Made by a program: the position numbers and the translations under genes
Assembly (NCBI GenBank): GCA_028749105.1
Contig: JAQUQF010000002.1
Location: 1-33,810 of the forward strand
Direction: 5' to 3'
DNA: 33,810 nucleotides
DNA from: Acidobacteriota bacterium
GTDB taxonomy: Bacteria > Acidobacteriota > Aminicenantia > UBA2199
Shown here: positions 5,000 to 32,687 of the stretch, in pieces
Position numbering within the stretch: position 1 is the first letter of the stretch
Layout: each line of letters begins with the position of its first letter
Notes under the pieces: model-generated
What the model was told of the DNA's origin: nothing
The model's input: the letters and a program-made list of their open reading frames with translations, nothing else
Database searches by the model: none

Positions 5000-5034
5000 G
5001 AACTAACAGGAAAATTAATTCTCTCCATGATGGG

Positions 5035-5063
5035 ATTTTAGAGTAGTTTTATTGAAATAACAA
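5035..5063 (-). promoter_or_regulatory. Sigma70-like promoter for the SGNH gene
   Basis: On the minus strand: TTGTTA (5063-5058), 17-nt spacer, TAAAAT (5040-5035). Confidence 0.3.
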
Positions 5064-5094
5064 TAAGCAGGCGATAAACCATATTCCTTAAGCC

Positions 5095-8319: not shown

Positions 8320-10368
8320 TCAGCGGACCTTCATGACCACGAAGGTCAGGTCGTCGGCATTGGCACGGCCGGCGGAGAACTCGATGGCCCTGGCCAGGAT
8401 CTTCTCCTTGATTTCCAGCGCCGACAGCGCGGCGTTGGCGCACAGCATCGCCTTCAGCTCGCTGACGCCCAGCATCTTCTCCTCGCTGTCCATTATCTCC
8501 GACAACCCGTCGGAGAAGAAGAAGAGGATGTCTCCGGGGCTGTAGGGCAGCCGCAGTTCCTCGATCCCCTCCTGGGTGAAGCTGTTCAGCCCCAGGGCCA
8601 TGCCGCGCGGCGACAGCTCCAGGCACTCCCCCTTCCCCGCCTGGTAGAAAAGGGCCGGGGTGTGGCCGGAGCGCGAGAAGATCAGGTTCCTGGCCTGCAG
8701 GTCGAAGCGCACCAGGTTGACGGTGATGAACGTGACCTTCTCAAAGGAGCCCTGCAGGCTGAGGTTGCATTCGTTGAGGATGGCCGCCGGCTCCTTGCCG
8801 GTCTTCTGCAGGCAGTTCATGATGCCCTTCAGCTCGGCCATGTAAAAAGCGGCCTGGGCCCCCTTGCCCGAGACATCGGCCACCAGCACCGAAAGGAAAG
8901 TGCCCGGGGAGTGAAAGTAGTCGAAATAGTCGCCGGCGATCTCGGTGGCCGGGATGTTGACGGCGGCAATGTCGAACTCGGGGCAGGCGAAATGGTCGGG
9001 GGGCAGCAGCTTCAGCTGGATGCCGCGGGCGATGCGCAGCTCCTCCTCCAGGCGCTGCTTCTCCTTCTCCTCGGTCAGCAGGCGGCCGATGCCCGAGGCC
9101 ATGTCGTTGAACGACTCGGCCAAAAAATGCATCTGCTCGCGCGACTTGATGCGGATGCGGTAGGAGAAATCGCCGCGGCGGATCTTCTCGGTCCCCCTGG
9201 TCAGCTCGTTCACGGCGCGGGTGATGACGCGTACCATTTGGAAGCCGATGAAGAACGAGACGATGATGAAGAAGCCGAACAGGACAAGCATGAAGCGCAC
9301 CAGCGTCGCAATGGGAAAAACCGAAGACTGGCTGTCGCTCTTCTGCAGCACCTGCCGCTCCTTCTGCAGCTCGTCCAACTGCTGGCTCTTGGCCAGGAGC
9401 TCGGATTGACTGCCGCCGGCCTGGATCTCCTTTTCCAGCTTTTTGGCCTGCGCCTGCAGCACGGCGGAGCGGTCGGAGGTCTTCAGTTTCTGCAGGATCT
9501 TCGAGTAGTCGTTGATCAGCAGGAACATGTTGAACTTGAGCACAGGCTTGCCAGCCTTCATTTCGTCGAAGTCCCAGTAGCGGAAGGTGAATGGGAAGGG
9601 GAAATGGTATTTTTCAAAGGCGGCCGCATCATTCTCTTCCAGGCGCACCGTCATCTGCTGCGGCGAGGAGCGGCGGACGGCCGTGCCGCCGGCGCCCATG
9701 AACATCACCCGGAAGTCGCCGATGGGCGGCATGGCGTCGAAAGTTTCCTGGTTCAGGGTCTCCAGGATCAGTGCCGCGTAGACTCCCCGGCGCTGCTGAA
9801 CGCCATGGTACAATACGCCCCCGGCCTTGAGAAAGCCCGACGTGAACGTGGCCAGCGCCCCATTGGGGTCCAGGACCTTCAGGGAGAGGTCTTCGGGATA
9901 CGTGAAGAAGGGCTCGAGCCGGCCGTCCTTCTCCTTGAAAAAGGCCAGGTTCAGGAAGCGCGGCCGGCGACGGCGGTAACGCTCCACTTCCTGGACGATC
10001 CGCTTCTCATCGGCCATATCCAGATAGTAGCCGGCGCTGTCCTCGAAGCCCTTGATGTCATTTTGCAGCAGGTTATCGAAGATGGCCGTATTGTACTGGT
10101 AGATGATGATGTTGGTGATCAGGTAGTAGAAGACCGAGATCAGCACGATGGGGGTGACGATGAAGAACAGCGAGGCGATGATCAGGCGGTTGCGGATCTT
10201 CCACAACAGGCGGCGGCGGACAATGCCCAGCAGGCGTACCACGCCAAGGATGATGGTCAGCCACAGAAAGAAGGTGAACGTGCCGGGCTTGAAAAAGACA
10301 TACGAGACAATGGTCCACAGGGCGAGGAGAATGATCGCCAGATCAAGTTTGCGGAGTTTGGAGAGCAT
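8320..10368 (-). CDS. Membrane sensor PP2C-type phosphatase (HAMP + SpoIIE/RsbU domain)
   Basis: N-terminal TM segments, a large extracytoplasmic region and a coiled coil. A second TM is followed by HAMP (VNELTRGTEKIRRGDFSYRI). The PP2C/SpoIIE block is ARGIQLKLLP...GDYFDY...VADVSGKG...FFFSDGL. Confidence 0.85.
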   Translation of the reverse strand: MLSKLRKLDLAIILLALWTIVSYVFFKPGTFTFFLWLTIILGVVRLLGIVRRRLLWKIRNRLIIASLFFIVTPIVLISVFYYLITNIIIYQYNTAIFDNLLQNDIKGFEDSAGYYLDMADEKRIVQEVERYRRRRPRFLNLAFFKEKDGRLEPFFTYPEDLSLKVLDPNGALATFTSGFLKAGGVLYHGVQQRRGVYAALILETLNQETFDAMPPIGDFRVMFMGAGGTAVRRSSPQQMTVRLEENDAAAFEKYHFPFPFTFRYWDFDEMKAGKPVLKFNMFLLINDYSKILQKLKTSDRSAVLQAQAKKLEKEIQAGGSQSELLAKSQQLDELQKERQVLQKSDSQSSVFPIATLVRFMLVLFGFFIIVSFFIGFQMVRVITRAVNELTRGTEKIRRGDFSYRIRIKSREQMHFLAESFNDMASGIGRLLTEEKEKQRLEEELRIARGIQLKLLPPDHFACPEFDIAAVNIPATEIAGDYFDYFHSPGTFLSVLVADVSGKGAQAAFYMAELKGIMNCLQKTGKEPAAILNECNLSLQGSFEKVTFITVNLVRFDLQARNLIFSRSGHTPALFYQAGKGECLELSPRGMALGLNSFTQEGIEELRLPYSPGDILFFFSDGLSEIMDSEEKMLGVSELKAMLCANAALSALEIKEKILARAIEFSAGRANADDLTFVVMKVR

Positions 10369-12485: not shown

Positions 12486-12513
12486 ATCAGGTTCCTAAAA
12501 TCCCCTCGTAAAA

Positions 12514-12678
12514 CTAAAATTCCAAATCCCAAGCACCAAATTCCAAATAAATTCCAAGTTCCAAATTCCAATGACCCAACCGAAAGCCATTTCCAGCATC
12601 TTTTCTTTTTTGGTCATTGGGACATTGGTGCTTGGTGCTTGTTTGGAATTTGGTGCTTGGAACTTGGTGCTTGATTCC
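12514..12678. repeat. CCAA-heptamer inverted-repeat element, copy A
   Basis: The left arm has CCAA at 12522, 12529, 12536, 12543, 12554, 12561 and 12568 (7-nt phase with one 11-nt jump). The right arm mirrors this with TTGG. The apex stem pairs 12568-12576 (ccaatgacc) with 12612-12620 (ggtcattgg). Long identical blocks are shared with copies B and C. Confidence 0.85.
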
Positions 12679-12705
12679 TACCCGATCGCCCACCTGATAC
12701 TTCAA

Positions 12706-13422
12706 TCATTTCTTATCTTCGGCCAGGTCCTCTTCCTCGTCGTAGCCCACGCGCTCGCCCGGGTCCTCGATGACCACGCGGCCGCCGACCGTCTCCTCGT
12801 AGGAGAGGCAGCACATCAAGCGGCCGCACATGCCCGAGATCTTGACCGGGTTCATGTTCAGGTTCTGCTTCTTGGCCATCTGCAGGGTGATGGGCTCCAG
12901 GTTGCTCAGGAAGGTTTTGCAGCAGAGCTGGCGGCCGCAGATGCCCACGCCGCCGATCATCTTGGCCTCGTCGCGGATGCCGATCTGGCGCATTTCGATG
13001 CGCATGCGGAACTTCCTGGCCAGGTCCTTGACCAGGTCGCGGAAGTCGATGCGCCCCTCCGAGGTGAAATAGAAGATGGCCTTTTTCTCGCTGGTATAAA
13101 AAGTCACGCGCACCAGCTTGATGGGGATCTCACGCTCGCGGATGCGGTTCTGGCAATACTCGTAGGCGCGCCGTTCCTCGCGCTCCTTGCGGGCGAAGCT
13201 CTCGATATCGCGGTCGTCGGCCCGGCGCAGGATCGCGGGGATGTGCGGGACCCCCCTGGTGCAGCTGAAGAGCTCGCCGAAATGCCTGACCACCCGGCCC
13301 AGCTCCTCGCCGGTGATCGACTGGATGATGACGCAGTCGTCGGGCTTGATGTCCTCCTCGACGGTGCGGAAGTGGAGCAGGTCGCGGCGGTTCTCGATCT
13401 TGACCAGGATGACCTTATCCAT
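12706..13422 (-). CDS. PSP1 domain protein (RicT/YaaT family)
   Basis: PSP1 C-terminal region with a Cys-rich GICGRQLCC...GMCGRLMCC. It overlaps holB by 8 nt, the classical holB-yaaT arrangement. Confidence 0.85.
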   Translation of the reverse strand: MDKVILVKIENRRDLLHFRTVEEDIKPDDCVIIQSITGEELGRVVRHFGELFSCTRGVPHIPAILRRADDRDIESFARKEREERRAYEYCQNRIREREIPIKLVRVTFYTSEKKAIFYFTSEGRIDFRDLVKDLARKFRMRIEMRQIGIRDEAKMIGGVGICGRQLCCKTFLSNLEPITLQMAKKQNLNMNPVKISGMCGRLMCCLSYEETVGGRVVIEDPGERVGYDEEEDLAEDKK

Positions 13423-14425
13423 TGGCCGCCATGCCTTGCGGGGAGTAACTGTTGATGAATTCCAGGATCAGCACCCTCGCGTTCAGGTTGCGCTGGATGT
13501 CGCGCAGCAGGAACTCCATCTTGCGGATCAGGAAGAACGTCTTGTCTATATCGGTCAGAGCGGCCAGTTCCATCAGCTTTTCCTTGTAGTCCGAATTGAT
13601 GAGCGTCCCGCTTTCGGGATCGACCAACAACACCATTATATCGCGCAGCAGCACGGAAATCAAGTTGACCATCTCGCGGAAATAGGCGATGAAGGCCTCA
13701 CGCCCGCGGCTGCGGTCGTAGAGGTCGAGCAGGATGTCCTCGACCTCGCTCTGGCGGATGAGGCGCTCCATAATACAGAGCATGGAGCGGCGCTTCTCCT
13801 CCATCTCCTGCCAATCGGCCTCCGAGAGGTCCTCCACGCATTGGGCGCTGAAAAAAGCCATCAGTCGGGCTTTTTCCGGGTCGACGCCGCGTCGCTGCAG
13901 CTCCAGCTTCACCTCGTGGTTGGACAGGGGCATGAACTTGAGGATCTGGCAGCGCGACTGGATGGTGGGCAGGATGAGGTTGATGTTCGTTGTCAGCAGG
14001 ATGAAGACATTGCTGGGCAGGGGCTCCTCCAGGGTCTTCAGGAAGGCGTTGGCCGCCGACTCGTTCGGGCGCTGGGCGTCGCGGAGGATGAATACCCGCC
14101 TCTCGCCCTGCATGGGCCGCTGGCAGGCCGTGGCGATCAGCTCGTCCAGCTGTGCCTTGCGGTAGAATTGGCCGTCGGGCTCGAGGACCCGCACGTCGGG
14201 GTAGAGCCCGCGGTCAATGGCCAGGCAGGGTCGGCAGCGGTCGCAGGCATCGAAGTGGCTCCCCTTCTGGCATACCAGGGCCTTGGCAAAATTCATGGCG
14301 AACTGCAGCTGGTGATAGGGGTCGGAGCCGGCGAAGATCAGGCTGGATGGGACGCGCTCGTTGCGCAGGTAGCCGGCCAGCGTGGCCTTGATGCGGGTGT
14401 TGCCGATCAGTTCAGCCAATGACAT
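13415..14425 (-). CDS. holB: DNA polymerase III delta-prime subunit
   Basis: AAA+ clamp-loader-like features: Zn module CQKGSHFDACDRCRPC, SRC motif IQSRCQ and LKTLEEP. Confidence 0.85.
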   Translation of the reverse strand: MSLAELIGNTRIKATLAGYLRNERVPSSLIFAGSDPYHQLQFAMNFAKALVCQKGSHFDACDRCRPCLAIDRGLYPDVRVLEPDGQFYRKAQLDELIATACQRPMQGERRVFILRDAQRPNESAANAFLKTLEEPLPSNVFILLTTNINLILPTIQSRCQILKFMPLSNHEVKLELQRRGVDPEKARLMAFFSAQCVEDLSEADWQEMEEKRRSMLCIMERLIRQSEVEDILLDLYDRSRGREAFIAYFREMVNLISVLLRDIMVLLVDPESGTLINSDYKEKLMELAALTDIDKTFFLIRKMEFLLRDIQRNLNARVLILEFINSYSPQGMAANG

Positions 14426-14540
14426 TCGATGTAGCTCCGTAGCGCGTGTTCACGCATGAAATTCAATCAAATGGTACCACACTATCAGGGTTTGCGAAAG
14501 ACTGGGTGCATGCCAGACGGTTGAAAGTCGTAAGAATAAG

Positions 14541-14697
14541 GCACCAAGCTCCAAGCACCAAATTCCAAATAAATTCCAATTTCCAAATTCCAATGTCCAA
14601 AACGAAAGCCATTTCAGTTTCTTTTCTTCGTTCGGTTCATTTGGACATTGGTGCTTGGTGCTTGTTTGGAATTTGGTGCTTGGGATTTGGAATTTTA
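14541..14697. repeat. CCAA-heptamer inverted-repeat element, copy B
   Basis: 14551-14579 is identical to 12529-12557. 14643-14683 is identical to 12620-12660. The apex stem pairs 14590-14600 with 14641-14651. The right arm lies inside the 3-prime end of the uvrA-like ORF. Confidence 0.85.
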
Positions 14698-17219
14698 GTC
14701 TTCCTGATGCTATTTTTTGTATCTTTCTCAGCTGATTTCTTCTTCAGATACTTTCCTGTCAGCGAGTTTTTGCATTGCATCAGGCCGGCGACATCTCCTT
14801 GGTACACGACCTTGCCTCCGTGCTTGCCACCGCCGGGTCCCAGGTCGATCACGTGGTCGGCAACGCGCAGCATCTCCAGGTTGTGCTCGATGACCACCAC
14901 GGTATGGCCGCGGTCAAGCAGCGCCTGGAAGACATCGATCAGCTTGCGCACATCGTCGAAGTGGAGGCCGACGGTGGGTTCGTCCAGGATGTAGACGGTC
15001 GGGCTCCCCGAGCCGCGGGCCAGCTCCTTGGTCAGCTTGATGCGCTGCGATTCGCCGCCGGAGAGGGTTTGCGAGCCCTGGCCCAGGCGCAGGTAGCCCA
15101 AACCGACGTCGATGAGGATGCGCATCTTGCGCGCCAGCGCCGGCACGGCGGCGAACAGCTCGCTGGCCTCGCTGGCGGTCAGGTCGAGGACGTCGGCGAT
15201 GGAGCGCCCCTTGTACTTGACCTGTCGCGTCTCCGAGTTGAAGCGCTCGCCGTCACAGACCGGGCAGGTGATCTCCAGCTGGGGCAGGAAGCTCATCTGC
15301 AGTCTTTGCACGCCCAGACCCTCGCAGGCCTCGCAGCGGCCGCCGCGCACGTTGTAGCTGAAGCGCCCCGAGGCATAGCCTCTCACCTTGGCCTCGGGCA
15401 GGGCGGCGAACAACTCGCGCACCATGGCCATGACGCCGATATAGGTGGCCGGGCAGGAGCGCGAGTTCTTGCCGATGGCCGACTGGCTGACCATCAGCAC
15501 CCGCTTGACCCCGTCAAGTCCCGAAACGGCGCCGCAGGCGAGGCGCGGGCTGGGGAACGGCACACCCTCCAGCTCGCGGCGCAGGATGGGCGCCAGGGCA
15601 TCGACGACCAGGGAGCTCTTTCCCGAGCCGGAGACGCCGCTGACCACGGTCAGGCAATTGAGGGGCAGGCGCAGGTCGATCCCCTGCAGGTTGTTGAGGC
15701 GGATGCCCTCTATGGCGAGGTAGGCGGCACCCGACGTGTCGCGCGGCGGTCGGGGCGCAATGCGGCGGCGGCCGTAGACGTACTCCGAGGTCAAGGATTT
15801 CTCCGCGGCGGCAAAACCGGCGATGGGGCCGGCGTACATGATCTCCCCGCCGTGTTCCCCCGCCCCGGGGCCGATGTCGACCACATGGTCGGCGGCACGG
15901 ATGGTCTCCTCGTCGTGCTCGACCACGATGAGGGTGTTGCCCATTTCGCGCAGCCGGCGCAGGATGCGCAGCAGGTTGAGCTGCTCGGAAAAATGCATGC
16001 CGATCGAGGGCTCGTCGAGGATGTAGATGATGCCGTTCAGGCCGAAGCCGAGCTGCGAGACGAGGCGGGCGCGCTGCAGCTCGCCACCGGAGATGGTGTC
16101 GATGCGGCGATTGAGCGCAACGTAGCCCAGGTTCAGCGTGACGAAGGATTCCAGGCGCTGGATGATCTGCGGCAGAAGGGCGCGGGCCACACCGGCCTCG
16201 GCGGGGGTCGGGCGCACGTTCTTGAAGAAGGCGAGCAGGTCAATGATCTCCATCTCCCCCAGTTCAAATATGTTGCGGCCGCGGAAGTAGAAGGCGCGGC
16301 TCTCGGCGCGGAAGCCGCTGCCGCCGCAGTCGGAACAGGTGCCATCCTCTCCTGGAAGGGCGTCCAGGCGGCCATTGCCCAGACAGCGCGGGCAGGCCCC
16401 TTCGGGCGAATTGAGCGAGAAGGTCCCCGGCTGGGGCTCGGCCAGCGAGATGTCGCAGCGCGGGCAGTGCAGGCGGCCGGAGAAGAAAGCCTCCTCCGTC
16501 CCGGCCCGGACCAGAATCTCGCCGTCGCCCTCGGTCAGGGCCAGGGCGATGCTCTCGCCCAGACGTGCGGCCGCGGCGCGCGTGTCCGGCACGACATCGA
16601 CGGCATCGATCTGGACGGCGATGCGGTGGCGCACATTGCGGGCCAGGGCGGGTGGGTCGTCCAGATAATATTCCTTGCCGTCGACAAGCGCCTTGAGGAA
16701 CCCCCGCTTGCAGTACTTCTCGAACAGGGCCTGGTAACTGCCGCGGCGATAACGCACCAGCGGGCTGTAAATGCGCACCAAAGAACCGGCAAAGCGGCTC
16801 AGGACGGCCTGCTGGATCTTATCCGCCGAGTAGCGGCTGATGGCATCGCCGCAGCGTGGGCAGCGCGCCTCGCCCAGCCTGGAGAAGAGCAGCCGCAAGT
16901 AGGGGGCAACCTCGGAAACGGTCCCCACCGTGGAGTTGTAATAGAACGAGGAGTGCTTCTGGTCGATGGAGATGGTCGGGGCAATGCCCTTGATCGAGCG
17001 CACGTCGGGCCGCTCCAGCGACTTGATGTACTGGCGGGCGTAGGCGGAGAGCGATTCCAGGTATTTGCGCTGCCCTTCCTGGAAAATCGTGTCGTAGGCC
17101 AGGGTGGACTTGCCCGACCCCGAGACGCCGCAGACGACGATCAATTGTTTTTTGGGCAGCCTTAAATGCAGGTGCCTTAAATTGTGCTTATGCGCGTCAA
17201 TAATTTCGAGGTATGACAT
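14637..17219 (-). CDS. uvrA: UvrA-family ABC ATPase, shorter than canonical UvrA (apparently lacks the insertion domain)
   Basis: Two ABC modules: GVSGSGKST at aa ~31-39 and GVSGSGKSS at ~529-536, with signatures ISGGE and LSGGE. Zn modules are CPRCG, HCPRC..ACPRC and CEAC...CPVC. The last ~20 aa (KIPNPKHQIPNKHQAPMSK) are encoded by repeat copy B. Confidence 0.9.
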   Translation of the reverse strand: MSYLEIIDAHKHNLRHLHLRLPKKQLIVVCGVSGSGKSTLAYDTIFQEGQRKYLESLSAYARQYIKSLERPDVRSIKGIAPTISIDQKHSSFYYNSTVGTVSEVAPYLRLLFSRLGEARCPRCGDAISRYSADKIQQAVLSRFAGSLVRIYSPLVRYRRGSYQALFEKYCKRGFLKALVDGKEYYLDDPPALARNVRHRIAVQIDAVDVVPDTRAAAARLGESIALALTEGDGEILVRAGTEEAFFSGRLHCPRCDISLAEPQPGTFSLNSPEGACPRCLGNGRLDALPGEDGTCSDCGGSGFRAESRAFYFRGRNIFELGEMEIIDLLAFFKNVRPTPAEAGVARALLPQIIQRLESFVTLNLGYVALNRRIDTISGGELQRARLVSQLGFGLNGIIYILDEPSIGMHFSEQLNLLRILRRLREMGNTLIVVEHDEETIRAADHVVDIGPGAGEHGGEIMYAGPIAGFAAAEKSLTSEYVYGRRRIAPRPPRDTSGAAYLAIEGIRLNNLQGIDLRLPLNCLTVVSGVSGSGKSSLVVDALAPILRRELEGVPFPSPRLACGAVSGLDGVKRVLMVSQSAIGKNSRSCPATYIGVMAMVRELFAALPEAKVRGYASGRFSYNVRGGRCEACEGLGVQRLQMSFLPQLEITCPVCDGERFNSETRQVKYKGRSIADVLDLTASEASELFAAVPALARKMRILIDVGLGYLRLGQGSQTLSGGESQRIKLTKELARGSGSPTVYILDEPTVGLHFDDVRKLIDVFQALLDRGHTVVVIEHNLEMLRVADHVIDLGPGGGKHGGKVVYQGDVAGLMQCKNSLTGKYLKKKSAEKDTKNSIRKTKIPNPKHQIPNKHQAPMSK

Positions 17220-17245
17220 AGATTAGATGTTATCATAAATTTAGG

Positions 17246-17383
17246 CACTCAGTGAAAAGTGAGAGGTGAAAAGTGAAAGGTAACAGCAATGATATGTTAC
17301 CAGTGAAAAATCAGGAAATACACTCAAAGAACTCAGTGAGTGTATTTACATTTCACCTTTCACTTTTTGCTTTTCACTGAGAA
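17246..17383. repeat. GTGAAAR-heptamer inverted-repeat element
   Basis: The left arm has GTGA/GTAA at 17252, 17259, 17266, 17273 and 17280 (exact 7-nt phase). The right arm has TTAC/TCAC at 17346, 17353, 17360 and 17374. The arms 17248-17283 and 17346-17381 are about 30/36 complementary. An inner perfect 7-bp hairpin is ggtaaca-9nt-tgttacc (17279-17301). Confidence 0.8.
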
Positions 17384-17395
17384 CTGGACTTCGAA

Positions 17396-17605
17396 CTATT
17401 CTTGCGCCTTGAATCTCTTCAAATCATTGGGATTTTCCACCCACTCCTCGATATAGCCGCAATCGGTGCAAACGAAGCGGGTGACCCAGACATCGATGCT
17501 GGTCAGGTTGACCGAGATCCGGCTCCAGCTGTTGAGCACCGGCGAGCCGCGCTTGCGGCCGATGGCCTTCGAGCCGCACTTCGGACACGATTTATTGTTT
17601 TTCAT
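17396..17605 (-). CDS. Small zinc-ribbon protein
   Basis: CPKCG near the N-terminus and CTDCG near the C-terminus; 69 aa. Confidence 0.55.
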   Translation of the reverse strand: MKNNKSCPKCGSKAIGRKRGSPVLNSWSRISVNLTSIDVWVTRFVCTDCGYIEEWVENPNDLKRFKAQE

Positions 17606-17626
17606 AAGTACACCTCGTAGAGATCG

Positions 17627-17655
17627 TTTATAGCAAAAAGAAAATGAAATATCAA
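17627..17655 (-). promoter_or_regulatory. Sigma70-like promoter for the zinc-ribbon gene
   Basis: On the minus strand: TTGATA (17655-17650), 17-nt spacer, TATAAA (17632-17627). Confidence 0.35.
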
Positions 17656-17660
17656 GGCAA

Positions 17661-17784
17661 GTGCCAGTGTCTGTGACAGTGACAGCAAGAAAATTAAATC
17701 AACTATAGCCTCATTGATGGTTCAGCTGGTACCGTCACTGGCACTAGTTGTGGGTTTTGCTGACACTGACACTGTCACTGGCAC
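17661..17784. repeat. GTGNCA-hexamer inverted-repeat element between divergent promoters
   Basis: Left arm gtgcca|gtgtct|gtgaca|gtgaca (17661-17684). Right arm tgacac|tgacac|tgtcac|tggcac (17761-17784). A third partial arm, gtcactggcac, lies at 17735-17745. Confidence 0.8.
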
Positions 17785-17797
17785 TCGTTTATAGGGA

Positions 17798-17826
17798 TTG
17801 ACTACGTCGCTGAAATGTCATAAAGT
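17798..17826 (+). promoter_or_regulatory. Sigma70-like promoter for iorA
   Basis: TTGACT (17798-17803), 17-nt spacer, TAAAGT (17821-17826). GAGGAGG (17843-17849) precedes ATG 17855. Confidence 0.35.
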
Positions 17827-17854
17827 TAATCTTATAACAGAACGAGGAGGTCCT

Positions 17855-19666
17855 ATGGCCAAAGAACTTCTATCGGGCAACGAAGCCATCGCCCGCGGCG
17901 CCTGGGAGGCGGGGGTCACCTTCGCCGCCGCCTACCCCGGCACGCCCAGCACCGAGATCCTGGAGAACATCATCCGCTACAAGGACGACATCTACTCCCA
18001 GTGGGGGACGAACGAGAAGACGGCCATGGAGGAGGCCCTCGGGGCCAGCTTCACCGGCGCCCGCGCCCTGGTGACCATGAAGCACGTGGGCTTGAACGTC
18101 GCAGCCGACCCGCTGTTCTCTGCCAGCTATATCGGCGCCACCGGCGCCCTGGTGATCGTCTCGGCCGACGACCCCGGCATGCACAGCTCGCAGAACGAGC
18201 AGGACAACCGCCACTACGCCGTGGCCGCCAAGATGCCGGTGCTCGAGCCCTCCGACTCCCAGGAAGCCAAGGACATGGTCCTGGAGGCGGTGAAGATCAG
18301 CGAGGCCTACGACACGCCGGTTATGATCCGCATGACCACCCGCACGTCGCACTCGCGCTCGGCGGTTGAATTGGGCGAGCGGCATGTGCCGCCCGTGCCC
18401 GAGTACAAGAGCGACTTCCTCAAGCGCAACCTGCTGCCGGGAAACGCCCGCAAGCGCCACGCCGCCGTCGAGGAGCGCCTGAAGAAACTGGCCGTGTTCA
18501 GCGACAGTTTTGCCTACAACACCATGATCAAGGGCAGGGAGCGGGTCGGCGTCCTCGCCTCCGGCGTCTCCTACCAGTACGGCCGCGAGGTCTTCCCCGA
18601 CGCTTGGTTCCTGAAGCTGGCCATGCCCTACCCCTTCCCGATCAAGCTGTTCCAGCGCTTCGCATCCATGGTCGACAAGATCTACGTTTTGGAGGAGAAC
18701 GATCCGATCATCGAGACTTTCGCCCGCCTGGCGGCCCCGCAGAAGGAGATCGTCGGCAAGGACGTCTTCCCGCTGCTGGGAGAGTTGTCGCAGGACGTGG
18801 TCCGCGCCAGCCTGGGGCTGAAGGACATGGCCCCACGACACTCCGCGGACGGAGTTCCGGGTCGCCCCCCCTCCTTGTGCGCGGGCTGCCCGCACACCGC
18901 TTTCTTCTACAACCTGGGGATACTGAAGGTGCAATCCAAGGGCGACATCGGCTGCTATACCCTGGGGGCGCTGCGGCCGCTGAGCGCCATGGACACCTGC
19001 GTCGACATGGGAGCGAGCATCACGGTGCAATTGGGCATTGAGAAGGCCCTGGAAAAGGCGGGCAAAACGACCAAGCAGGTCGCCGTGATCGGCGATTCCA
19101 CCTTCTTCCATTCCGGCATCACCGGCCTGATCGACGTCATTTACAACCAGGGCAAGTCGACGATCGTCATCCTGGACAATTCGATCACGGCCATGACCGG
19201 CCACCAGGAGAACCCGGGCTCGGGCCGGACCCTGATGGGCCAGCCGGTCCGGCAGATCGACATCGTCAAGCTGGTGCGCGACGGCCTGGGCCTGGAGCAC
19301 ACCTACGAGGTCGACGGCTACGAGGTCAAGGCCATCCGCGAGCTGCTGAAGCGCGAGATGGCCCGGGAGGAGCCCTCGGTGATCGTCGTGCGCCGACCAT
19401 GCGTGCTGCTCTACCGCAAGGCCAAGTGGTCGCCCATGGTCGTGGACAAGTCCACATGCACCAGCTGCAAGACCTGCCTGCGCCTGGGCTGCCCGGCCAT
19501 CAGCACCGACGTCGACGGCAAGTCGCTGATCAACGTCTCCCTGTGCACCGGCTGCGGCGTTTGCGCCCAGGTCTGCCCCTACAAGGCCATCTCCTACGCT
19601 GACGAAAAAGGGATGCACATCGGCTCCATGACTCTGGAATCGTTCGCCAAGGGAGGCGGCAAATGA
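17855..19666 (+). CDS. iorA: Indolepyruvate:ferredoxin oxidoreductase alpha subunit
   Basis: 2-oxoacid:Fd oxidoreductase TPP-binding architecture (GDSTFFHSG). C-terminal 2x[4Fe-4S] motifs are CTSCKTCLRLGCP and CTGCGVCAQVCP. Start trimmed to the ATG with a strong SD. Confidence 0.9.
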   Translation: MAKELLSGNEAIARGAWEAGVTFAAAYPGTPSTEILENIIRYKDDIYSQWGTNEKTAMEEALGASFTGARALVTMKHVGLNVAADPLFSASYIGATGALVIVSADDPGMHSSQNEQDNRHYAVAAKMPVLEPSDSQEAKDMVLEAVKISEAYDTPVMIRMTTRTSHSRSAVELGERHVPPVPEYKSDFLKRNLLPGNARKRHAAVEERLKKLAVFSDSFAYNTMIKGRERVGVLASGVSYQYGREVFPDAWFLKLAMPYPFPIKLFQRFASMVDKIYVLEENDPIIETFARLAAPQKEIVGKDVFPLLGELSQDVVRASLGLKDMAPRHSADGVPGRPPSLCAGCPHTAFFYNLGILKVQSKGDIGCYTLGALRPLSAMDTCVDMGASITVQLGIEKALEKAGKTTKQVAVIGDSTFFHSGITGLIDVIYNQGKSTIVILDNSITAMTGHQENPGSGRTLMGQPVRQIDIVKLVRDGLGLEHTYEVDGYEVKAIRELLKREMAREEPSVIVVRRPCVLLYRKAKWSPMVVDKSTCTSCKTCLRLGCPAISTDVDGKSLINVSLCTGCGVCAQVCPYKAISYADEKGMHIGSMTLESFAKGGGK

Positions 19667-20247
19667 CTACAAAATCGATCCTGATCTGCGGTGTCGGCGG
19701 CCAAGGCATTCTGACCGCCAGCGACCTGCTCTCCGACGTGCTGCTGCAGGCCGGCTACCAGGTGAAGAAGAGCGAGGTGCACGGCATGAGCCAGCGCGGC
19801 GGCGACGTGATCTCCACGGTGCGCTACGGGGACCAGGTCTTTTCGCCCCTGCCCGCCCTCAAGGAGACCGACTACATCCTGGCCTTCGAGAAGCTCGAAG
19901 CCCTGCGCAACATCAACTACCTGGGCGAGAAGGGCATCGTCCTGGTCAACGATTTCGAGTGGCAGCCTCTGACCGTGGCGGCGGGCTATGAAAAATACCC
20001 CGCGGATGTGGTGCCGCGGCTGAAAAAACTGGCCGGCGAGCTTGTGCTCATCCCGGCGACGCGCCTGGCCGCCGAGCTCGGCAACGACAAGGCCTCCAAC
20101 GTCGTGCTGATCGGCCTGCTGGCCTCGCGCATGGATATCGACGAGAAGGTCTGGCTGGAGGTCGTCCGCCGCAAGGTGCCGCCGCGCTTCCTGGACTTGA
20201 ACCTGAAGGCCTTCGATGCCGGATACCGCTTCAAGGCCGGGGCCTGA
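19663..20247 (+). CDS. iorB: Indolepyruvate:ferredoxin oxidoreductase beta subunit
   Basis: Gamma-domain-like ILICGVGGQGILTASDLL...HGMSQRGG. ATGA overlap with iorA. Confidence 0.85.
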   Translation: MTTKSILICGVGGQGILTASDLLSDVLLQAGYQVKKSEVHGMSQRGGDVISTVRYGDQVFSPLPALKETDYILAFEKLEALRNINYLGEKGIVLVNDFEWQPLTVAAGYEKYPADVVPRLKKLAGELVLIPATRLAAELGNDKASNVVLIGLLASRMDIDEKVWLEVVRRKVPPRFLDLNLKAFDAGYRFKAGA

Positions 20248-20263
20248 GGCCGGGGAGAACGCC

Positions 20264-21166
20264 ATGATCCAGAACCTGAAACAGCTCGTGCAAGCCGCCA
20301 AGAAGCGAAAGGGCATCATCGCCGGAGTCCCCTGCCCCGAGGACGAAAGCACCATCCTCTCGGTCATCGAGGCCAAGAAGGAGGGTTTGGCTGACTTCGT
20401 CCTCTGTGGCGATCGGGCCAAGATTTCCCAGCTGCTCCGCCAGCTCGGCGGCGACGAGTCCGACTTCGAGGTCCACGACACCCCCGGGGCCGAGACGGCG
20501 GTAGCGCGGGTGGTGGAGCTGGGCCGCCTGGGGAAGCTGCACCTGGTCCTGAAGGGCTTCCTGCCCACGGCGGCGCTGATGAAGCCCATCCTGGACAAGG
20601 AAAAGGGGTTGCGCGGCGAGAACCTGCTCTCCGACATCCTGGTGCTGGAGAACCCGGCCTGCGAGGAGCTGCTGGGCATGAGCGACGGGGGGCTGAACAT
20701 TCTACCCGACCTCGCCCAGAAGAAGCAGATCGTGGAGAACGCCGTCGCCGTGTTCCACGGCCTGGGCTATGAGGAGCCGCGGGTGGGGATCATGGCCGCC
20801 ATCGAGGCGGTCAAGGACTCCATGCCGGCCACCCTCGATGCCAGGTCCCTGACCGAGATGAACGGACGCGGGGAGATCGCGGACTGCCAGGTCTACGGGC
20901 CGCTGGCTCTGGACATCGCCGTCTCGCGCGAAGCGGCCGAGCACAAGGGCATTTTCAACGATGTCGCCGGCCGGGCGCAGATCATGATCGTTCCCAACAT
21001 CGAGGCGGGCAATCTGCTGGGCAAGGCCTTCACCTACTACCTGAAGCTCACCGTGGCCCACGTGGTCATGGGCGCCCGCCTGCCGATCCTCATCCCCTCG
21101 CGCAACGAGAGCGACACCGACAAGTTCCATTCCCTGGCCCTGGGCGTGCTCAGCGCCCGGCCCTGA
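20264..21166 (+). CDS. ptb: Phosphate butyryl/acetyltransferase-family phosphotransacylase
   Basis: PTA_PTB fold: start MIQNLKQLVQAAKKRKGIIAGVPCPED, then GGLNILPD and VPNIEAGNLLGK. Confidence 0.8.
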   Translation: MIQNLKQLVQAAKKRKGIIAGVPCPEDESTILSVIEAKKEGLADFVLCGDRAKISQLLRQLGGDESDFEVHDTPGAETAVARVVELGRLGKLHLVLKGFLPTAALMKPILDKEKGLRGENLLSDILVLENPACEELLGMSDGGLNILPDLAQKKQIVENAVAVFHGLGYEEPRVGIMAAIEAVKDSMPATLDARSLTEMNGRGEIADCQVYGPLALDIAVSREAAEHKGIFNDVAGRAQIMIVPNIEAGNLLGKAFTYYLKLTVAHVVMGARLPILIPSRNESDTDKFHSLALGVLSARP

Positions 21167-21188
21167 GCCGCGCTTCGCCTCCCCCATC

Positions 21189-21821
21189 ATGGGAAGACGG
21201 CTGATGCTCAGCGCGCTCCTGCTGCTGGCCTCCTTGGCCACCTTTGCGGGGACGGCACCGTCACCGGCAGTGGACGTCGATTTCCTGCGCCAGGTGCGCG
21301 CCCGCATCCTCCAAAGCCAGCCCTTCCGGGCCGACTTCGTCCAAAGGGTCTATGTGGACGATGAATTGAGCATTGAGGAGAGCGGCTTCATCGTTTTCGC
21401 CAACCGCGAGCGCGTCAAATGGCAGTACCTTGTTCCGGAATACAAGACGTTCATCCTGGAGTCCGGCCGCTACAGTTTTTACGACCGCGAGAACCAGCAG
21501 CTGCTGCGCGGCCGCCTGGGCGAGCGCAGCCGCGAGCTGGTCTGGGATCTGCTGTTTTCCGACCGGCCCGGTCAGTCCTGCCGCTGGGACTCCCGCAAGC
21601 GTACGATCAGCCTCGCGCTCGCCGGGGAGAACGGCGTCGAAGAGCTGAAGATTCTCGTCGGCCCCGACCTCCTGCCCCGGCGCGTGGAGCAGTCCGCGGT
21701 CAACGATGTGACCACTGTCTATGAGTTCAGCGCCTATCGCGTCCGCACCCTCCCCGCCGCCGGAGAATTCGAACTGGACCTCCCCGCCGGCGTGGAAATC
21801 ATCGACGATCAGGCACCGTGA
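21189..21821 (+). CDS. LolA-like outer-membrane lipoprotein carrier/sorting protein
   Basis: Signal peptide, then a LolA-like pattern: FRADFVQ..ESGFIVFANRERVKWQYLVPEYKTFILESGRYSFYDRENQQL. Confidence 0.55.
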   Translation: MGRRLMLSALLLLASLATFAGTAPSPAVDVDFLRQVRARILQSQPFRADFVQRVYVDDELSIEESGFIVFANRERVKWQYLVPEYKTFILESGRYSFYDRENQQLLRGRLGERSRELVWDLLFSDRPGQSCRWDSRKRTISLALAGENGVEELKILVGPDLLPRRVEQSAVNDVTTVYEFSAYRVRTLPAAGEFELDLPAGVEIIDDQAP

Positions 21822-21847
21822 AAACCTTTGCCCGCCGGAATCCGTAG

Positions 21848-22423
21848 ATGCAATTGGACGAAGACCAGGTCCTGATCAAGAAGACGCTGCGGGGAGACCG
21901 CAAGGCGTTCGAGGAACTGATGCGCAAGTACGAGAAGAAGATTTTCAGCTTCGTGGTCCGCATGGTCCGCAACGAGGAGACGGCCGTGGACCTGACCCAG
22001 GATTTTTTCTTTAAGATCTTCACCGTCCTGGACAAGTACAACTACGAGTACAAGTTCTCCACCTGGGCCTACCGCATCTGCTACAACCTGGTCATCGACC
22101 ACATCCGCAAGAACCAGACCCAGGTCGACTCGCTCGACGATGAAGGCGTCACGTCGCACGACCTGCTTGCTTCGGACAACGTCAGCCGCGAGGACGGCTT
22201 CAAGGCCCTGGCCCGCGCCGAGACCCGGGACTACGTCTGGAACATCGTGGACCAGATCCCGCTCAAGTTCCGCGAGCTGATCCTGCTGCGCTACATCCAG
22301 GACCTCAAGTACGAAGAGATAGCCGAGATCACGGCGCTGCCTGTGGGCACCGTCAAGAACCGCATCTTCAAGGCCAAGGAGATCCTGAAAAAGGAGATGG
22401 AAAAAGATGGCATGCTTGTCTGA
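21848..22423 (+). CDS. ECF-type RNA polymerase sigma factor
   Basis: Region 2 (FSTWAYRICYNLVIDHIRK) and region 4 HTH (YEEIAEITALPVGTVKNRIFKAKEIL). Confidence 0.9.
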   Translation: MQLDEDQVLIKKTLRGDRKAFEELMRKYEKKIFSFVVRMVRNEETAVDLTQDFFFKIFTVLDKYNYEYKFSTWAYRICYNLVIDHIRKNQTQVDSLDDEGVTSHDLLASDNVSREDGFKALARAETRDYVWNIVDQIPLKFRELILLRYIQDLKYEEIAEITALPVGTVKNRIFKAKEILKKEMEKDGMLV

Positions 22424-22961
22424 CGAAACCCTGATCGCCTGCAACGAGGGGAGCCTGGGCGCCATCGAAGCGGCCCGGGTCCGCGACCATCTGCTGCTCT
22501 GCCCGGCCTGCCGGGAAACGGCCGCGCATTATCGTCTCCTCGAGCGGGCGCTGGAGCGGCCGCAGCTCGCCATGCCCCCGGCCCGGCTTGTCCCCCAGGT
22601 GATGGAGCGCCTCTTCCCCGCCGCCGCCCGCATCACGTCGATCGCGGCCGTTGCTGCCGCCAGCTTCGTCTTCCTCGTCTCCTGGATCTACATCTATTTC
22701 GATTTCTCCAGCAGCAGTCTGGTCCAGGCGCTGCGCCTGACCACCGACGGCACCACGGGCTGGCTGGCCGGCATCATCCAGGGCATCACCAGCGTATATA
22801 ACGGCGCCCAGGCAGTCCGCAAGGCTCTCGGCGCCATGCTGCGCATCCTCTTTCCCGCTCCCCTGGGCGTGGTCGCGATCGCCGTCGCCATCCTCGGGCT
22901 TTCACTCCTGCTGGCGCTGACCGTCTTCCGCCCGCGGCTTAAAAAAGCGAAGCGCACATGA
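22407..22961 (+). CDS. Anti-sigma factor (zf-HC2 type), membrane-anchored
   Basis: N-terminal H-x3-C-x2-C motif (RDHLLLCPACRE) with TM segments downstream. It overlaps the sigma gene by 17 nt. Confidence 0.7.
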   Translation: MACLSDETLIACNEGSLGAIEAARVRDHLLLCPACRETAAHYRLLERALERPQLAMPPARLVPQVMERLFPAAARITSIAAVAAASFVFLVSWIYIYFDFSSSSLVQALRLTTDGTTGWLAGIIQGITSVYNGAQAVRKALGAMLRILFPAPLGVVAIAVAILGLSLLLALTVFRPRLKKAKRT

Positions 22962-23833
22962 AAAGGATCCGCCTGCTGGTGCTCTTCCTGGCCGTTTGCG
23001 GGCTATTCCTGGCCGCCGCCGATAAAAAGGAAATCACCGTGGCTGCCGGCGAGACCCGCAGCAGCGCCATCAACGCCTTCAACGCCCGCCTGGATGTCCG
23101 CGGCAGGGTCGACGAGTCGGTCTTCCTGCTGGGCGGCAGCCTCCGCCTGGAAGGCGAAGTGACCGGCGACGTCATCTGCGTCGCTGCCGACGTGGAGATC
23201 GCCGACGGCAGCGTGATCGGCCGCGACCTGATCGTCATCGGCGGCCGGCTGCGCAAGGCGGACAACAGCCGCGTCGGCGGCAGGGTCTATGACGTGCGTT
23301 CCCGCGAGGGCATGAGGCGGGTCGCCGCCTCGGTCATGCCCCTTGTCCCGGAAGAAGGAGGAATGACCTTCTTCAAGGTCGTCAAGATATTCTTCTGGCT
23401 TCTTCTCTCGCTGCTGGCATTGGCCGTCTTCCCGGTCCCCGTCGCCCAGGCGGCGGCCATGCTCCCCCGGGAGCCGCTGCGCCACGCGGGGCGCGGCCTG
23501 CTGACGCTGCTGCTTTTTGTGCTGCTGACCCTGGTCTTCCTGCTGCTGAGCTTCGTGCTGATCGGCATCCCGCTGCTGGTCGTGCTGCTGGCCGCCTTTT
23601 TCCTCCTGCTGATCTTCGGCCGCGCCGCCGTGTTTTATTGCATCGGCGAGCGCCTCTGCCGCTTTTTCAAGCTGCAGGCCGGCCCGACACTGTTCATCGT
23701 CTTGGGCATCGCCATCTATACCCTGTTCAAATTCATCCCCTATGCAGGGGGCGTGCTGTTGGTCGCGATCGATCTGCTTGCGGTCGGAGTCGGGGTTGGA
23801 TATTTCCTCAGACGCAGGAAGTCCTTGGCGTAG
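22958..23833 (+). CDS. Membrane protein with bactofilin-like (polymer-forming) beta-helical N-terminal domain
   Basis: Signal/anchor, then repetitive V.G.V..DV units (LDVRGRVDESVFLLGGSLRLEGEVTGDVICVAADVEIADGSVIGRDLIVIGGRL). Several TM helices follow. ATGA overlap with the anti-sigma gene. Confidence 0.5.
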   Translation: MKRIRLLVLFLAVCGLFLAAADKKEITVAAGETRSSAINAFNARLDVRGRVDESVFLLGGSLRLEGEVTGDVICVAADVEIADGSVIGRDLIVIGGRLRKADNSRVGGRVYDVRSREGMRRVAASVMPLVPEEGGMTFFKVVKIFFWLLLSLLALAVFPVPVAQAAAMLPREPLRHAGRGLLTLLLFVLLTLVFLLLSFVLIGIPLLVVLLAAFFLLLIFGRAAVFYCIGERLCRFFKLQAGPTLFIVLGIAIYTLFKFIPYAGGVLLVAIDLLAVGVGVGYFLRRRKSLA

Positions 23834-23839
23834 AACCTT

Positions 23840-24046
23840 CGTGACGCGTAACGCGTGACACGGTAAATTAATTTCAAATCTCAAGTACCATTGACCCAAA
23901 AACTCAAATAAAGAGAAGAAAATTGCCGGGGTTTTCGTTTGGGACATTGGGATTTGGAACTTGGAATTTATTTGGAATTTGGTGCTTGGAACTAATTTAT
24001 TCTCTTATTAGTCGCTCAGTACTCGTCACGCGTTTCGCGTTACGTC
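23840..24046. repeat. Composite inverted-repeat element: outer GTRACGC-heptamer arms flanking an inverted, half-degenerate CCAA-type element (copy C)
   Basis: Outer arms are gtgacgc|gtaacgc|gtgacac (23841-23861) and cgtcacg|cgtttcg|cgttacg (24024-24044). Inside, 23961-23989 is the exact reverse complement of 12529-12557 and 14551-14579. Confidence 0.8.
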
Positions 24047-27599: not shown

Positions 27600-27624
27600 T
27601 TTTCAACCTCGTTGGGAAGAGTTC

Positions 27625-27653
27625 AATCTATAATATTTTAGCCTATTTGTCAA
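27625..27653 (-). promoter_or_regulatory. Sigma70-like promoter for the rplM-led operon
   Basis: On the minus strand: TTGACA (27653-27648), 17-nt spacer, TAGATT (27630-27625). Confidence 0.4.
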
Positions 27654-27795
27654 GGTTTTTTGCGAAAAAATCTCGCTGACGGGGATTTTCGACCTTGGGA
27701 AGTCCGCGTCCGACAAAGGAAAGCGCCCGACAACGGCGGGGTGTAATTCCGTCGAACTATTGCGTTGGCTGACAAAATTTGTTATATTGTCATCC

Positions 27796-28074: not shown

Positions 28075-28361
28075 GCTTGAAACTGTCAAAGAACCGGGTG
28101 AACTACCTGACCAAGCTGATCGTGGACTACATCCAGAAGAGCGAGGACATCGATTACCTGGACGATCTGGGCAATATCCGCTTCAAAATTTACCATATCA
28201 TCCTGGACGAGCTCAAGCTGTTCGAGGACATCGAAACCGCCTCCCAGGAAAAGATCGTTTCCCAGAAGAAGAACATCCCCGAGGGCTCGCGCGAATGGGA
28301 GATCCTCTTCCGCAAGTACAGCAACGAGGAGCTGGCCAAACTCGGCCGCGTTTGGGACTAA
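28071..28361 (+). CDS. DUF507-family small protein (paralog)
   Basis: LSKNRVNYLTKLIVDYIQ... ATGA overlap with the upstream paralog. Confidence 0.6.
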   Translation: MSLKLSKNRVNYLTKLIVDYIQKSEDIDYLDDLGNIRFKIYHIILDELKLFEDIETASQEKIVSQKKNIPEGSREWEILFRKYSNEELAKLGRVWD

Positions 28362-30520: not shown

Positions 30521-30531
30521 GCCATCCTCCT

Positions 30532-31464: not shown

Positions 31465-31466
31465 TC

Positions 31467-31754
31467 CTAATTCTTTTCCGGTTCCCGGTCAACGGAAACC
31501 TTGTCCACGATGCCGACGATGACCGAATGAAAGGGATCGCTGCGCGTTCCCAGCAATTCGCGAGCCGTATTGCCTTCCTGCTGCACCAAGACCAGGTCGC
31601 CAGGACCGGCGTTGACCGTATCGCAGGACAAAAACGCGTGGGCGGTGTCTTCACCGTTTTCATCGACCGGTTGGACGATCAGAAGCTTATGCCCTTTGTG
31701 ACTGCCATGTTTCCTGGTCGCCACCACGTTGCCGATCACCCTGGCCAGTTTCAT
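31467..31754 (-). CDS. BMC vertex protein (BMC-P, EutN/CcmL family)
   Basis: MKLARVIGNVVATRKH...LLIVQPVD...AVDTV-type pattern. Confidence 0.85.
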   Translation of the reverse strand: MKLARVIGNVVATRKHGSHKGHKLLIVQPVDENGEDTAHAFLSCDTVNAGPGDLVLVQQEGNTARELLGTRSDPFHSVIVGIVDKVSVDREPEKN

Positions 31755-31767
31755 ATCAACGCTCCAT

Positions 31768-32675: not shown

Positions 32676-32687
32676 GGTCTTTTCCCT

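Follow-up and report, generated by a model that had tools for sequence, protein, structure and literature searches.

Intergenic hairpins with word-periodic arms in an Acidobacteriota genome, read as gene-less elements that resemble rRNA intervening sequences

Five intergenic gaps in a 33,810-nucleotide stretch of the genome of an Acidobacteriota bacterium (NCBI GenBank assembly GCA_028749105.1, contig JAQUQF010000002.1, positions 1 to 33,810; 'the window' in what follows) each hold a long hairpin, E1 to E5, whose arms are arrays of short repeated words. With a probability of roughly 0.55, we take these hairpins to belong, as members without a gene, to a class of palindromic word-array elements that is widespread and is akin to the intervening sequences (IVSs) of ribosomal RNA genes, and we read them as something other than canonical terminators, repetitive extragenic palindromes (REPs) or classical miniature inverted-repeat transposable elements (MITEs). 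IVSs are extended stem-loops that replace the tips of rRNA helices and are excised by RNase III. Some encode S23p, the protein of intervening sequences in 23S rRNA, an Avd-like 'four helix bundle protein' of Pfam family PF05635. A member of the class would comprise two inverted arrays of a 6–8-nt word, sometimes of 11 nt, around a loop; full-length members would hold a PF05635 gene in that loop, and would be the same kind of object as an IVS in an rRNA gene. The association of PF05635 with word arrays is the main new link, and it is not visible from the sequence of the window alone.

Between 12.4 and 24.1 kb of the window, exactly five intergenic gaps exceed 150 nt. An earlier note on this DNA, made from the sequence alone, had placed an inverted repeat in each, and we find one in all five (Table 1), in gaps that match those of the note; gaps outside this interval (278-481, 1190-1433, 27600-27759, 28075-28294) hold no such hairpin. 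The stems are 20–60 bp, the loops 29–165 nt and the arms 25–65-nt word arrays. Folding energies of E1 to E4, and of E5 as a whole, lie 5–11 standard deviations below those of dinucleotide shuffles on both strands—minimum free energy z = -8.2 and -9.2 for E1, and -10.9 and -8.1 for E3—and the stability of the inner hairpin of E5 alone is not significant (z = -1.4 and -0.1). Tandem Repeats Finder (TRF) reports period 7 in the arms of E1, E2, E3 and the inner E5, and period 6 in E4. Autocorrelation at lag 7 (lag 6 for E4, where it is 0.74 and 0.78) ranges from 0.54 to 0.78, with P<=0.004 against shuffles in 11 of the 12 arms. The periodic arrays that the note described are therefore real, but the strict register it ascribed to them is not: TRF finds 11–18% indels in the CCAA arms, as at the CCAAATAAATTCC step. 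Nor does each hairpin have an alphabet of its own, as had been supposed, since E1, E2 and the inner E5 are homologous copies that share one alphabet and a common 29-mer, CCAAGCACCAAATTCCAAATAAATTCCAA.

Table 1. Hairpins of the window, the gaps between 12.4 and 24.1 kb, and associated features (genes were called from third-codon-position GC content, GC3, and Pfam)
Feature	Position	Strand	Description
Intergenic gap	12486-12705
Intergenic gap	14426-14636
Intergenic gap	17220-17395
Intergenic gap	17606-17797/17855
Intergenic gap	23834-24046
E1	12509-12681		CCAA/TTGG word-array hairpin, full; arms ~12517-12580 and 12610-12674; loop 12581-12609
E2	14533-14705		Second CCAA-family copy; arms 14541-14601 and 14636-14702
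E3	17248-17381		GTGARAR / YTYTCAC heptamer-array hairpin; arms 17248-17283 and 17346-17381, 83% complementary
E4	17660-17785		CAGTGN / NCACTG hexamer-array hairpin; arms 17660-17688 and 17757-17785, 86% complementary
E5	23840-24044		Nested composite between two convergent stop codons; outer CGTRACG arms 23840-23859 and 24025-24044, 90% complementary
Inner CCAA element of E5	~23868-23905 and 23942-23998		Left arm decayed, right arm intact
Promoter-like site beside E4			TTGATA-17-TATAAA, Zn-ribbon gene (by eye)
Promoter-like site beside E4			TTGACT-17-TAAAGT, POR gene (promoter scan)
RNase III gene	7584-8318	(-)	Ribonuclease_3 and dsrm domains; 4 kb from the first hairpin

E1 starts ~30 nt past the PSP1-like stop codon at 12706(-), and E3, whose loop contains two small inner hairpins, starts 15 nt past the Zn-ribbon stop codon at 17396(-). 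Between the outer arms of E5 (a GTRACGC hairpin) lies a degenerate CCAA element, reversed in orientation. E2 is 87% identical to a copy in another metagenome-assembled genome (MAG; locus L039). Its right arm is not intergenic: it supplies the final ~21 codons and the stop of the uvrA-like open reading frame (ORF) at 14637-17219(-), and its stretch 14637-14702 encodes the C-terminal residues IRKTKIPNPKHQIPNKHQAPMSK. The uvrA-like protein of relatives stops ~20 residues sooner, a few residues after ...GKYLKKKL. Assembly artefact can be set aside, for the region of E3, the Zn-ribbon gene and E4 is essentially identical in six independent assemblies from different samples, NCBI GCA_035912455.1 among them; the structures are thus real, and stable at the level of the population. 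CRISPR was rejected on sight, there being no spacers and the units being of 7 nt, and a scan of 12-24.5 kb with Rfam 15 gave nothing at gathering score, only sub-threshold chance matches to plant miRNA hairpins.

The design is pervasive in relatives of the window's host. With HolB as probe, we recovered 18 metagenomic loci carrying orthologues at 76–95% identity, probably from Aminicenantes. In 157 kb of window and relatives, TRF counts 106 period-7 arrays against 3.2 in block-wise dinucleotide shuffles, 30 of period 6 against 1.4, and 31 of period 14 against 0.6; 119 of the 155 arrays are intergenic, and 30 of the 32 gaps of at least 100 nt in relatives contain at least one. Periodicity of 6–7 nt is in strong excess over shuffled controls, and the design recurs throughout related genomes. 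Arrays paired within a gap have complementary consensus words, with 1.35 mismatches per 7 against 2.98 for random pairings, and none of 2000 permutations gave a value as low.

Turnover at a fixed site is evident between uvrA and holB. Every relative locus that reaches this gap has a word-periodic hairpin there, and the alphabet varies by locus: CCAA in the window, elsewhere GGTGTAA/TACACCT, GCCTTTT, AAGTGAC/GTCACTY, GAGTGAT/ATCACTC, GACGGYN/GCCGTAC or CCTTTTA. The closest relative (95% HolB identity) has a mere 20-nt GTGACG...CGTCAC remnant. Within a genome, a few alphabets peculiar to it recur at many loci—GTGAT words occur in six gaps of L136, for example—and copies inside one genome have non-periodic loops in common. 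Word-array hairpins are therefore dispersed families, not independent local inventions.

They are also stacked within one another like Russian dolls, a 'G-first' array outermost, then a CCAA...TTGG hairpin, then small GC-rich hairpins. E5 is nested, as are L118 and L119, which share its layout, L102, and L129 at 9540-9960. L127 and L130 have the same outer GTGAC arms, but an inner CCAA element is present in only one of them, which offers a comparison of filled and empty states. An 8-nt terminus, CTCRGTG...CACYGAG, was suspected for G-first hairpins, but four pairs against 0.84 expected do not make it a general terminal repeat. A second repeat family, present in relatives and not in the window, consists of small, GC-rich, REP-like hairpins headed by GTAG (GTAGGGGCG...CGCCCCTAC), usually located inside the loops of word-array hairpins (L129 9620-9660, 13295-13320 and 13450-13480; L131 9585-9620, 9830-9870 and 16400-16440; and L098).

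One family, that of the CCAA/TTGG words, consists of ~170-nt elements and crosses phyla; E1, E2 and the inner E5 are its members in the window. The earlier note had thought the class might be lineage-specific. This cannot be so for CCAA: an exact 19-mer, CCAAGCACCAAATTCCAAA, occurs in at least 119 loci of many phyla, among the matches listed for GTDB representative genomes. Those carriers include Bacteroidota, with isolates of Maribacter, Salinimicrobium, Chitinophaga, Pricia and Aquaticitalea; Planctomycetota, Aminicenantes/Acidobacteriota and many Patescibacteria; and Desulfobacterota, Omnitrophota, Nitrospirota, Chloroflexota, Verrucomicrobiota and Proteobacteria. A phased TTGG array lies within 400 nt downstream of the 19-mer in 48 of 114 scorable loci, and upstream of it in none of the 119 listed; the C-rich arm thus comes first, in a fixed polarity.

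Over ~170 nt, arms and loop included, ten copies can be aligned at a mean column identity of 71%; they come from eight assemblies, that of the window and those of seven Acidobacteriota/Aminicenantes MAGs. Columns without variation are those of the phased CCAA/TTGG cores and of parts of the inner stem and loop, and the 3-nt spacers toggle between ATT, GCA, ATC and GCT with no compensatory change. RNAalifold detects no covariation among the ten copies, and the stem rests on the invariant cores. This pattern supports the proposal of the earlier note that a periodic stem would tolerate slips: the arms pair mainly through their phased cores, and arms that slipped in register would still pair. E1 and E2 are flip-flop isomers, alike in the orientation of their loops but with the ends ACTAAAATTCCAAATCCC... 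and AAGCACCAAGYTCC... swapped, and both forms occur in the MAG of L039 as well (360-555 and 3296-3480). Isomerism of this kind is to be expected if the arms recombine, and suggests that recombination between inverted arms may lie behind it.

The 5' domain of one 16S rRNA gene contains a complete CCAA hairpin (L093 330-470; 538 nt for 403 model positions), and a 63-nt CCAA array (KFQIPSTKFQTNSKFQAPNSK) lies in frame in leuS, the gene for leucyl-tRNA synthetase, of an unclassified MAG (L097 840-910). In three loci of Flavobacteriia / Bacteroidota (L018, L030, L089), the same words, AAGCACC and AAATTCC, form long, exact direct arrays of up to seven or more copies, which then run into arrays of other words, and no complementary arm is obvious; the vocabulary thus exists both with and without a hairpin.

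In three of the relatives, L129, L131 and L136, a gene of 90–129 codons is located inside a word-array hairpin ~9.6–10.2 kb from holB. The arms are GTTCGAN / CATCGAA in L129, CGTAATG / CATTACG in L131 and GGGAAGA / TCTTCCC in L136, and the genes belong to PF05635, with a weak match to the Avd protein of diversity-generating retroelements. We compared 19 such cassettes across about ten phyla: these three, 11 from unrelated organisms (Campylobacterota, Dehalococcoidia, Omnitrophota, Deferribacterota, Gammaproteobacteria, Bacteroidota and others), and five that are plasmid-borne (Nostoc PCC 7120, N. punctiforme, Riemerella anatipestifer, Picosynechococcus and Azospirillum). The 11 include Nitrosophilus kaiyonis, a Dehalococcoidia MAG, an Omnitrophota MAG, a JGI contig, Deferribacter abyssi, a Porticoccaceae MAG and a 'Victivallales' contig. 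A second, more distant subfamily is represented by Pseudopedobacter, a Chrysiogenia-labelled MAG and two others.

Short-word arrays flank the gene on both sides in all 19 cassettes, usually within 10–60 nt; most cassettes have a period of 7, two have 8 and two 11. In 18 of them the array downstream of the gene reverse-complements one that lies upstream, the exception being the Nostoc 7120 copy, which lies beside an ISL3 transposase; and the G-richer array is 5' of the gene in 18 of the 19. N. kaiyonis, for example, has CGTAAAA CGTAAAG CGTAATT CGTAAAA on one side of the gene and ATCACGA ATTATGA ATTACGA ATCACGG on the other, and N. punctiforme has GGGTGTG x4 and ACACCCT x5. The PF05635 gene is always co-oriented with the housekeeping genes that flank it and tightly wedged between them, which implies that the arrays came in together with the gene and were not spacer DNA already in place. 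In the cassette's own alphabet, hairpins or arrays that lack a gene occur nearby in L129, L131, L136 and L150, and the divergence of the proteins is weakly correlated with that of the words. E3, E4 and the outer E5 share with the cassette arms their NGTRANN-type words and G-first polarity, and E1, E2 and the inner E5 form a separate, C-first, cross-phylum family with IVS-like behaviour—insertion in rRNA and in hairpin loops—and no known cargo.

PF05635 is a large family, of at least 7989 clusters, and its genes have been found wedged inside cas operons (Zhang et al., PMC3936711). Five genes of one subfamily, from five phyla (L144, L145, L148, L150, L151), all adjoin genes for an NAD-dependent epimerase or a UDP-glucose dehydrogenase in sugar-nucleotide operons. 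In L150 the neighbouring epimerase has a faint LAGLIDADG (intein-like) match, and word arrays lie within its called ORF.

Among known systems, rRNA IVSs with an S23p ORF (Leptospira, Coxiella, Xanthomonas) come closest. They, too, have terminal inverted repeats that form a long stem, as do E1 to E5 and the cassettes, around a loop that may hold a PF05635 gene; and they, too, insert at hairpin tips, are A/T-rich compared with the host, and are distributed sporadically. The IVS of Coxiella has a 28-bp terminal stem that is cleaved by RNase III and, 5' of the S23p ORF, two to four tandem GACAGAT heptamers whose number varies by strain (Warrier et al., PMC4990558). These heptamers lie in the 5' arm of the IVS, and a CCAA hairpin lies in a 16S rRNA gene (L093). 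The window copies differ in lying in intergenic DNA between protein genes and not at the tip of an rRNA helix, in lacking an ORF, and in having arms that are explicit multi-word arrays.

Direct repeats of heptamers are known in heterocystous cyanobacteria as short tandemly repeated repetitive (STRR) sequences. One STRR unit, TTGGTCA, is a word of the CCAA/TTGG family. STRRs and the long simple-sequence repeats of Mrazek 2007 resemble the arrays described here in being intergenic tandem heptamers, of many alphabets, in Cyanobacteria and Bacteroidota, with a function that has gone unexplained; and head-to-tail intergenic 7-nt units in excess of chance are just what the window and its relatives contain. 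TAACTGA arrays are a further example, and heptamers are given as the commonest long simple-sequence repeat in PMC4679880. All of these have been described as direct repeats alone, whereas here complementary arrays face one another as a hairpin, in dispersed families that bracket a specific gene family. In the literature that we searched there is no account of inverted heptamer arrays as a general hairpin class, beyond the Coxiella observation, nor of a general bracketing of PF05635 by word arrays, nor any mention of the word sequences themselves; Rfam has no family for such arrays.

How might such elements behave? What is directly observed is the structure and its periodicity, the dispersal, nesting and turnover of the elements, their occurrence in rRNA and their association with PF05635. 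Building on these, the elements would occupy non-essential places: intergenic DNA, the tips of existing hairpins (hence the nesting, from which movement into such tips is inferred), the tips of rRNA helices and, occasionally, the 3' ends of genes. They would multiply as families within a genome, as E1 and E2 and the genome-specific alphabets of relatives suggest, and turn over quickly at a fixed site. The most likely origin of the word periodicity would be the expansion of short units by strand slippage and their homogenisation; with one core common to all units, the arms would still pair after unequal gain or loss of units. In a read-through transcript, the long stem would be cut by RNase III, insulating the transcript of the host and, in full-length copies, releasing the S23p mRNA; such processing is suggested by the IVS literature and by the presence of an RNase III gene in the window. 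Gene-less copies would derive from gene-carrying ones, or the reverse.

Several observations weigh against our interpretation. Searches with Pfam and a hidden Markov model (HMM) find no PF05635 gene in the window, so the link to E3–E5 rests on shared design and on the relatives. The PF05635 HMM, run against all six-frame ORFs in ~1 Mb of loci, returned just the four matches known previously, none of them beside a CCAA element. No CCAA-armed PF05635 cassette was found, and CCAA hairpins are opposite to the cassettes in polarity, C-rich arm first in the 48 versus 0 listed loci given above. The 19 cassettes were picked from BLAST and HMM match lists for long contigs and named taxa and are not a random sample; ten come from one subfamily, at >57% identity. 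The taxonomic labels of MAGs may be wrong, and L152 and L161 resemble Acidobacteriota loci in synteny. For the spread of CCAA across phyla, no vector was identified: BLAST of E2 against plasmid and phage collections gave no match, to which the low-complexity filter may contribute, and the element is rare in IMG/VR, where two contigs match. E3 and E4 are invariant across six population samples, with no direct sign of ongoing slippage or movement; boundaries are fuzzy, and neither a target-site duplication nor a clean insertion boundary could be defined. Finally, the antisense fold is the more stable in 18 of 26 tandem gaps, the RNA of the sense strand not being favoured, and in the CCAA family A-C mismatches are as frequent as G-U pairs. 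Both argue against strong selection on an RNA stem.

A bolder proposal, that inverted short-word arrays are the cis-element of the PF05635 family, and that the two together form an unrecognised, pan-bacterial, mobile palindromic cassette of which gene-less copies are miniature derivatives, is one that we put forward tentatively and would not ourselves bet on. The heptamer arrays of Cyanobacteria (STRR), Bacteroidota, bacteria of the candidate phyla radiation, Planctomycetota and Acidobacteriota would then be footprints of the cassette, and rRNA IVSs would be copies that landed in rRNA. The protein, presumed pentameric, would recognise its own words or, like Avd, bring in a reverse transcriptase, and so propagate or protect the element.

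The hairpins might instead be RNA elements selected by the host at operon boundaries—terminators of an unusual kind, hairpins for RNase III or for mRNA stability, or transcriptional insulators—whose sequence drifts while a long stem is kept. Four of the five come directly past a stop codon or between genes that converge, a T-rich tail follows E1 on the sense strand, the consensus words of the arms stay complementary, and a hairpin persists in the orthologous gap in every case, despite the replacement of its sequence. We nevertheless consider this unlikely. E4 is situated exactly between two divergent promoter-like sites, and its orthologues likewise between divergent promoters, where there is nothing to terminate. 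A pattern scan for intrinsic (Rho-independent) terminators matches none of the hairpins, its sole match being a 6-bp stem inside the left arm of E2. Sense-strand folds are not favoured, and the sense strand shows no preference for G-U pairs. These findings speak against a classical role in termination and against strong selection for an RNA helix of the sense strand, and leave the slippage-tolerant terminators envisaged in the earlier note without support. Spacers change without compensation, the same elements are found inside rRNA and coding sequence, and the closest relative makes do with its 20-nt remnant.

Less likely again, by our estimate, is that the arrays are phased binding sites, each word being the site of a single-strand- or RNA-binding protein such as a pentameric S23p or an OB-fold protein of the cold-shock or S1 type, in which case the inversion of the arrays would offer sites on either strand or control the expression of S23p. 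The CCAA family does conserve a phased 4-nt core and not the pairing of its spacers, and words recur across phyla. Crystals of S23p homologues contain five chains per entry (2GSC, 2RLD), and arrays are often of three to six words. Protein and word divergence are correlated, weakly (Mantel r = 0.29, P = 0.04, n = 13), and one heptamer is bound per protein by CspB, a result cited in PMC4679880. A fixed footprint is hard to fit, though, to word numbers of 3 to 21, periods of 6 to 11 and dozens of alphabets per lineage. Any binding is purely hypothetical, and is compatible with the IVS-like reading that we prefer.

REPs and MITEs invite comparison with that reading too. REPs, the bacterial interspersed mosaic elements (BIMEs) and REP doublets (REPINs) that they form, and the REP-associated tyrosine transposases (RAYTs) that go with them offer extragenic palindromes, genome-specific families, long hairpins of two inverted units, and repeats that flank the associated gene—the logic by which RAYTs were discovered. 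The REP unit is an imperfect palindrome of ~20–40 nt with a GTAG head, however, and the window arms are 25–65-nt, internally periodic arrays without the ~25-nt GTAG-headed unit; no RAYT is present among the window ORFs, and the gene bracketed in relatives encodes a non-catalytic four-helix bundle. The judgement of the earlier note, that the design is non-random and distinct from that of ordinary terminators and of REP/BIME elements, is borne out. Bacterial MITEs (Correia/NEMIS, RUP, Nezha) and the small dispersed repeats of Nostoc are likewise ~100–200 nt long and non-coding, with inverted ends, and insert near gene ends and into one another, but their terminal inverted repeats are unique sequence and not word arrays, and for the window hairpins neither a matching autonomous insertion sequence (IS) nor a demonstrated target-site duplication was found.

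That the hairpins are classical non-autonomous transposons (MITEs or REPINs), mobilised in trans by a DDE or Y1 (RAYT) transposase that is encoded elsewhere in the genome and for which the word arrays of the terminal repeats are iterated binding sites, strikes us as improbable. Dispersed families with conserved ends and loops, A/T-rich ends that are often TAAA/TTTA-like, insertions in a gene end, in rRNA and in other elements, and the co-occurrence in relatives of GTAG-headed, GC-rich, REP-like hairpins would all be at home in such a scheme. Yet the many unrelated alphabets would each require a matching enzyme, and what occupies the space between such arms is a PF05635 gene and not one for a transposase. 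No Y1/HUH or other transposase is among the window ORFs, and none adjoins any copy seen; the hairpin-specific transposase that had been suggested is to that extent unsupported. The boundaries of 57 copies that we inspected have A/T-rich flanks, no consistent duplication and no IS nearby. Least probable of all is purely local replication slippage with quasi-palindrome template switching, which would yield microsatellite hairpins devoid of mobility, function or gene link: slippage has been proposed for heptamers as the commonest long simple-sequence repeat of prokaryotes (Mrazek 2007, as cited in PMC4679880), and would account for exact tandem runs in Flavobacteriia and for units homogenised within an array, but not for non-periodic loops and ends shared across loci and genomes, an identical 19-mer across phyla, PF05635 genes consistently bracketed (18/19), or a polarity fixed in CCAA hairpins (48 to 0 among the loci listed) and in 18 of 19 cassettes.

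Heptamer arrays (STRRs and long simple-sequence repeats), rRNA IVSs and the very large four helix bundle/S23p family have gone without explanation for some thirty years. If it is true that all three are parts of one element, each becomes experimentally approachable. There are practical consequences as well. Hairpins of this kind distort gene calls, as the ~21 codons added to the uvrA-like gene and the in-frame array in leuS illustrate; they insert into 16S rRNA; and metagenome assemblies are likely to break at them. Alphabets specific to a genome could be used to mark strains or lineages.

The window itself is ~60% GC, with a high GC3, and its genes are an ordinary housekeeping set, in this order: a FadL-like gene, a PSP1-like gene, holB, the uvrA paralogue, the gene for the 69-aa Zn-ribbon protein, those for POR subunits, and pta, followed by an ECF (extracytoplasmic function) sigma factor gene, frr, pyrH, tsf, rpsB, rpsI/rplM and a microcompartment locus. 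Within these ~60% GC surroundings lies a 1.3-kb island of 38% GC (3809-5094) that encodes a 374-aa ORF (3875-4999, (-)) with no match in Pfam, NCBIfam or PADLOC. The island occupies the spot at which L129, L131 and L136 carry their PF05635 cassettes, beside the orthologue of the ORF at 5095-6234, and for this reason the spot looks like an insertion hot spot. By PADLOC, neither PF05635 nor the 374-aa ORF nor the Zn-ribbon protein is a known defence component. In two of the relatives, a conserved pair of 14-nt perfect palindromes, TTGCGAAATTTATT...AATAAATTTCGCAA, of operator-like appearance, lies just 5' of a small Cys-rich ORF (MATKKAERYVCGVCG...; L129 16480-16560 and L136 8640-8700). The bacterial microcompartment locus of the window (29867-33758) comprises two BMC-domain shell genes and two EutN/CcmL vertex genes, together with class II and DeoC-type aldolases and an RnfC/Nuo51-like Fe-S protein.

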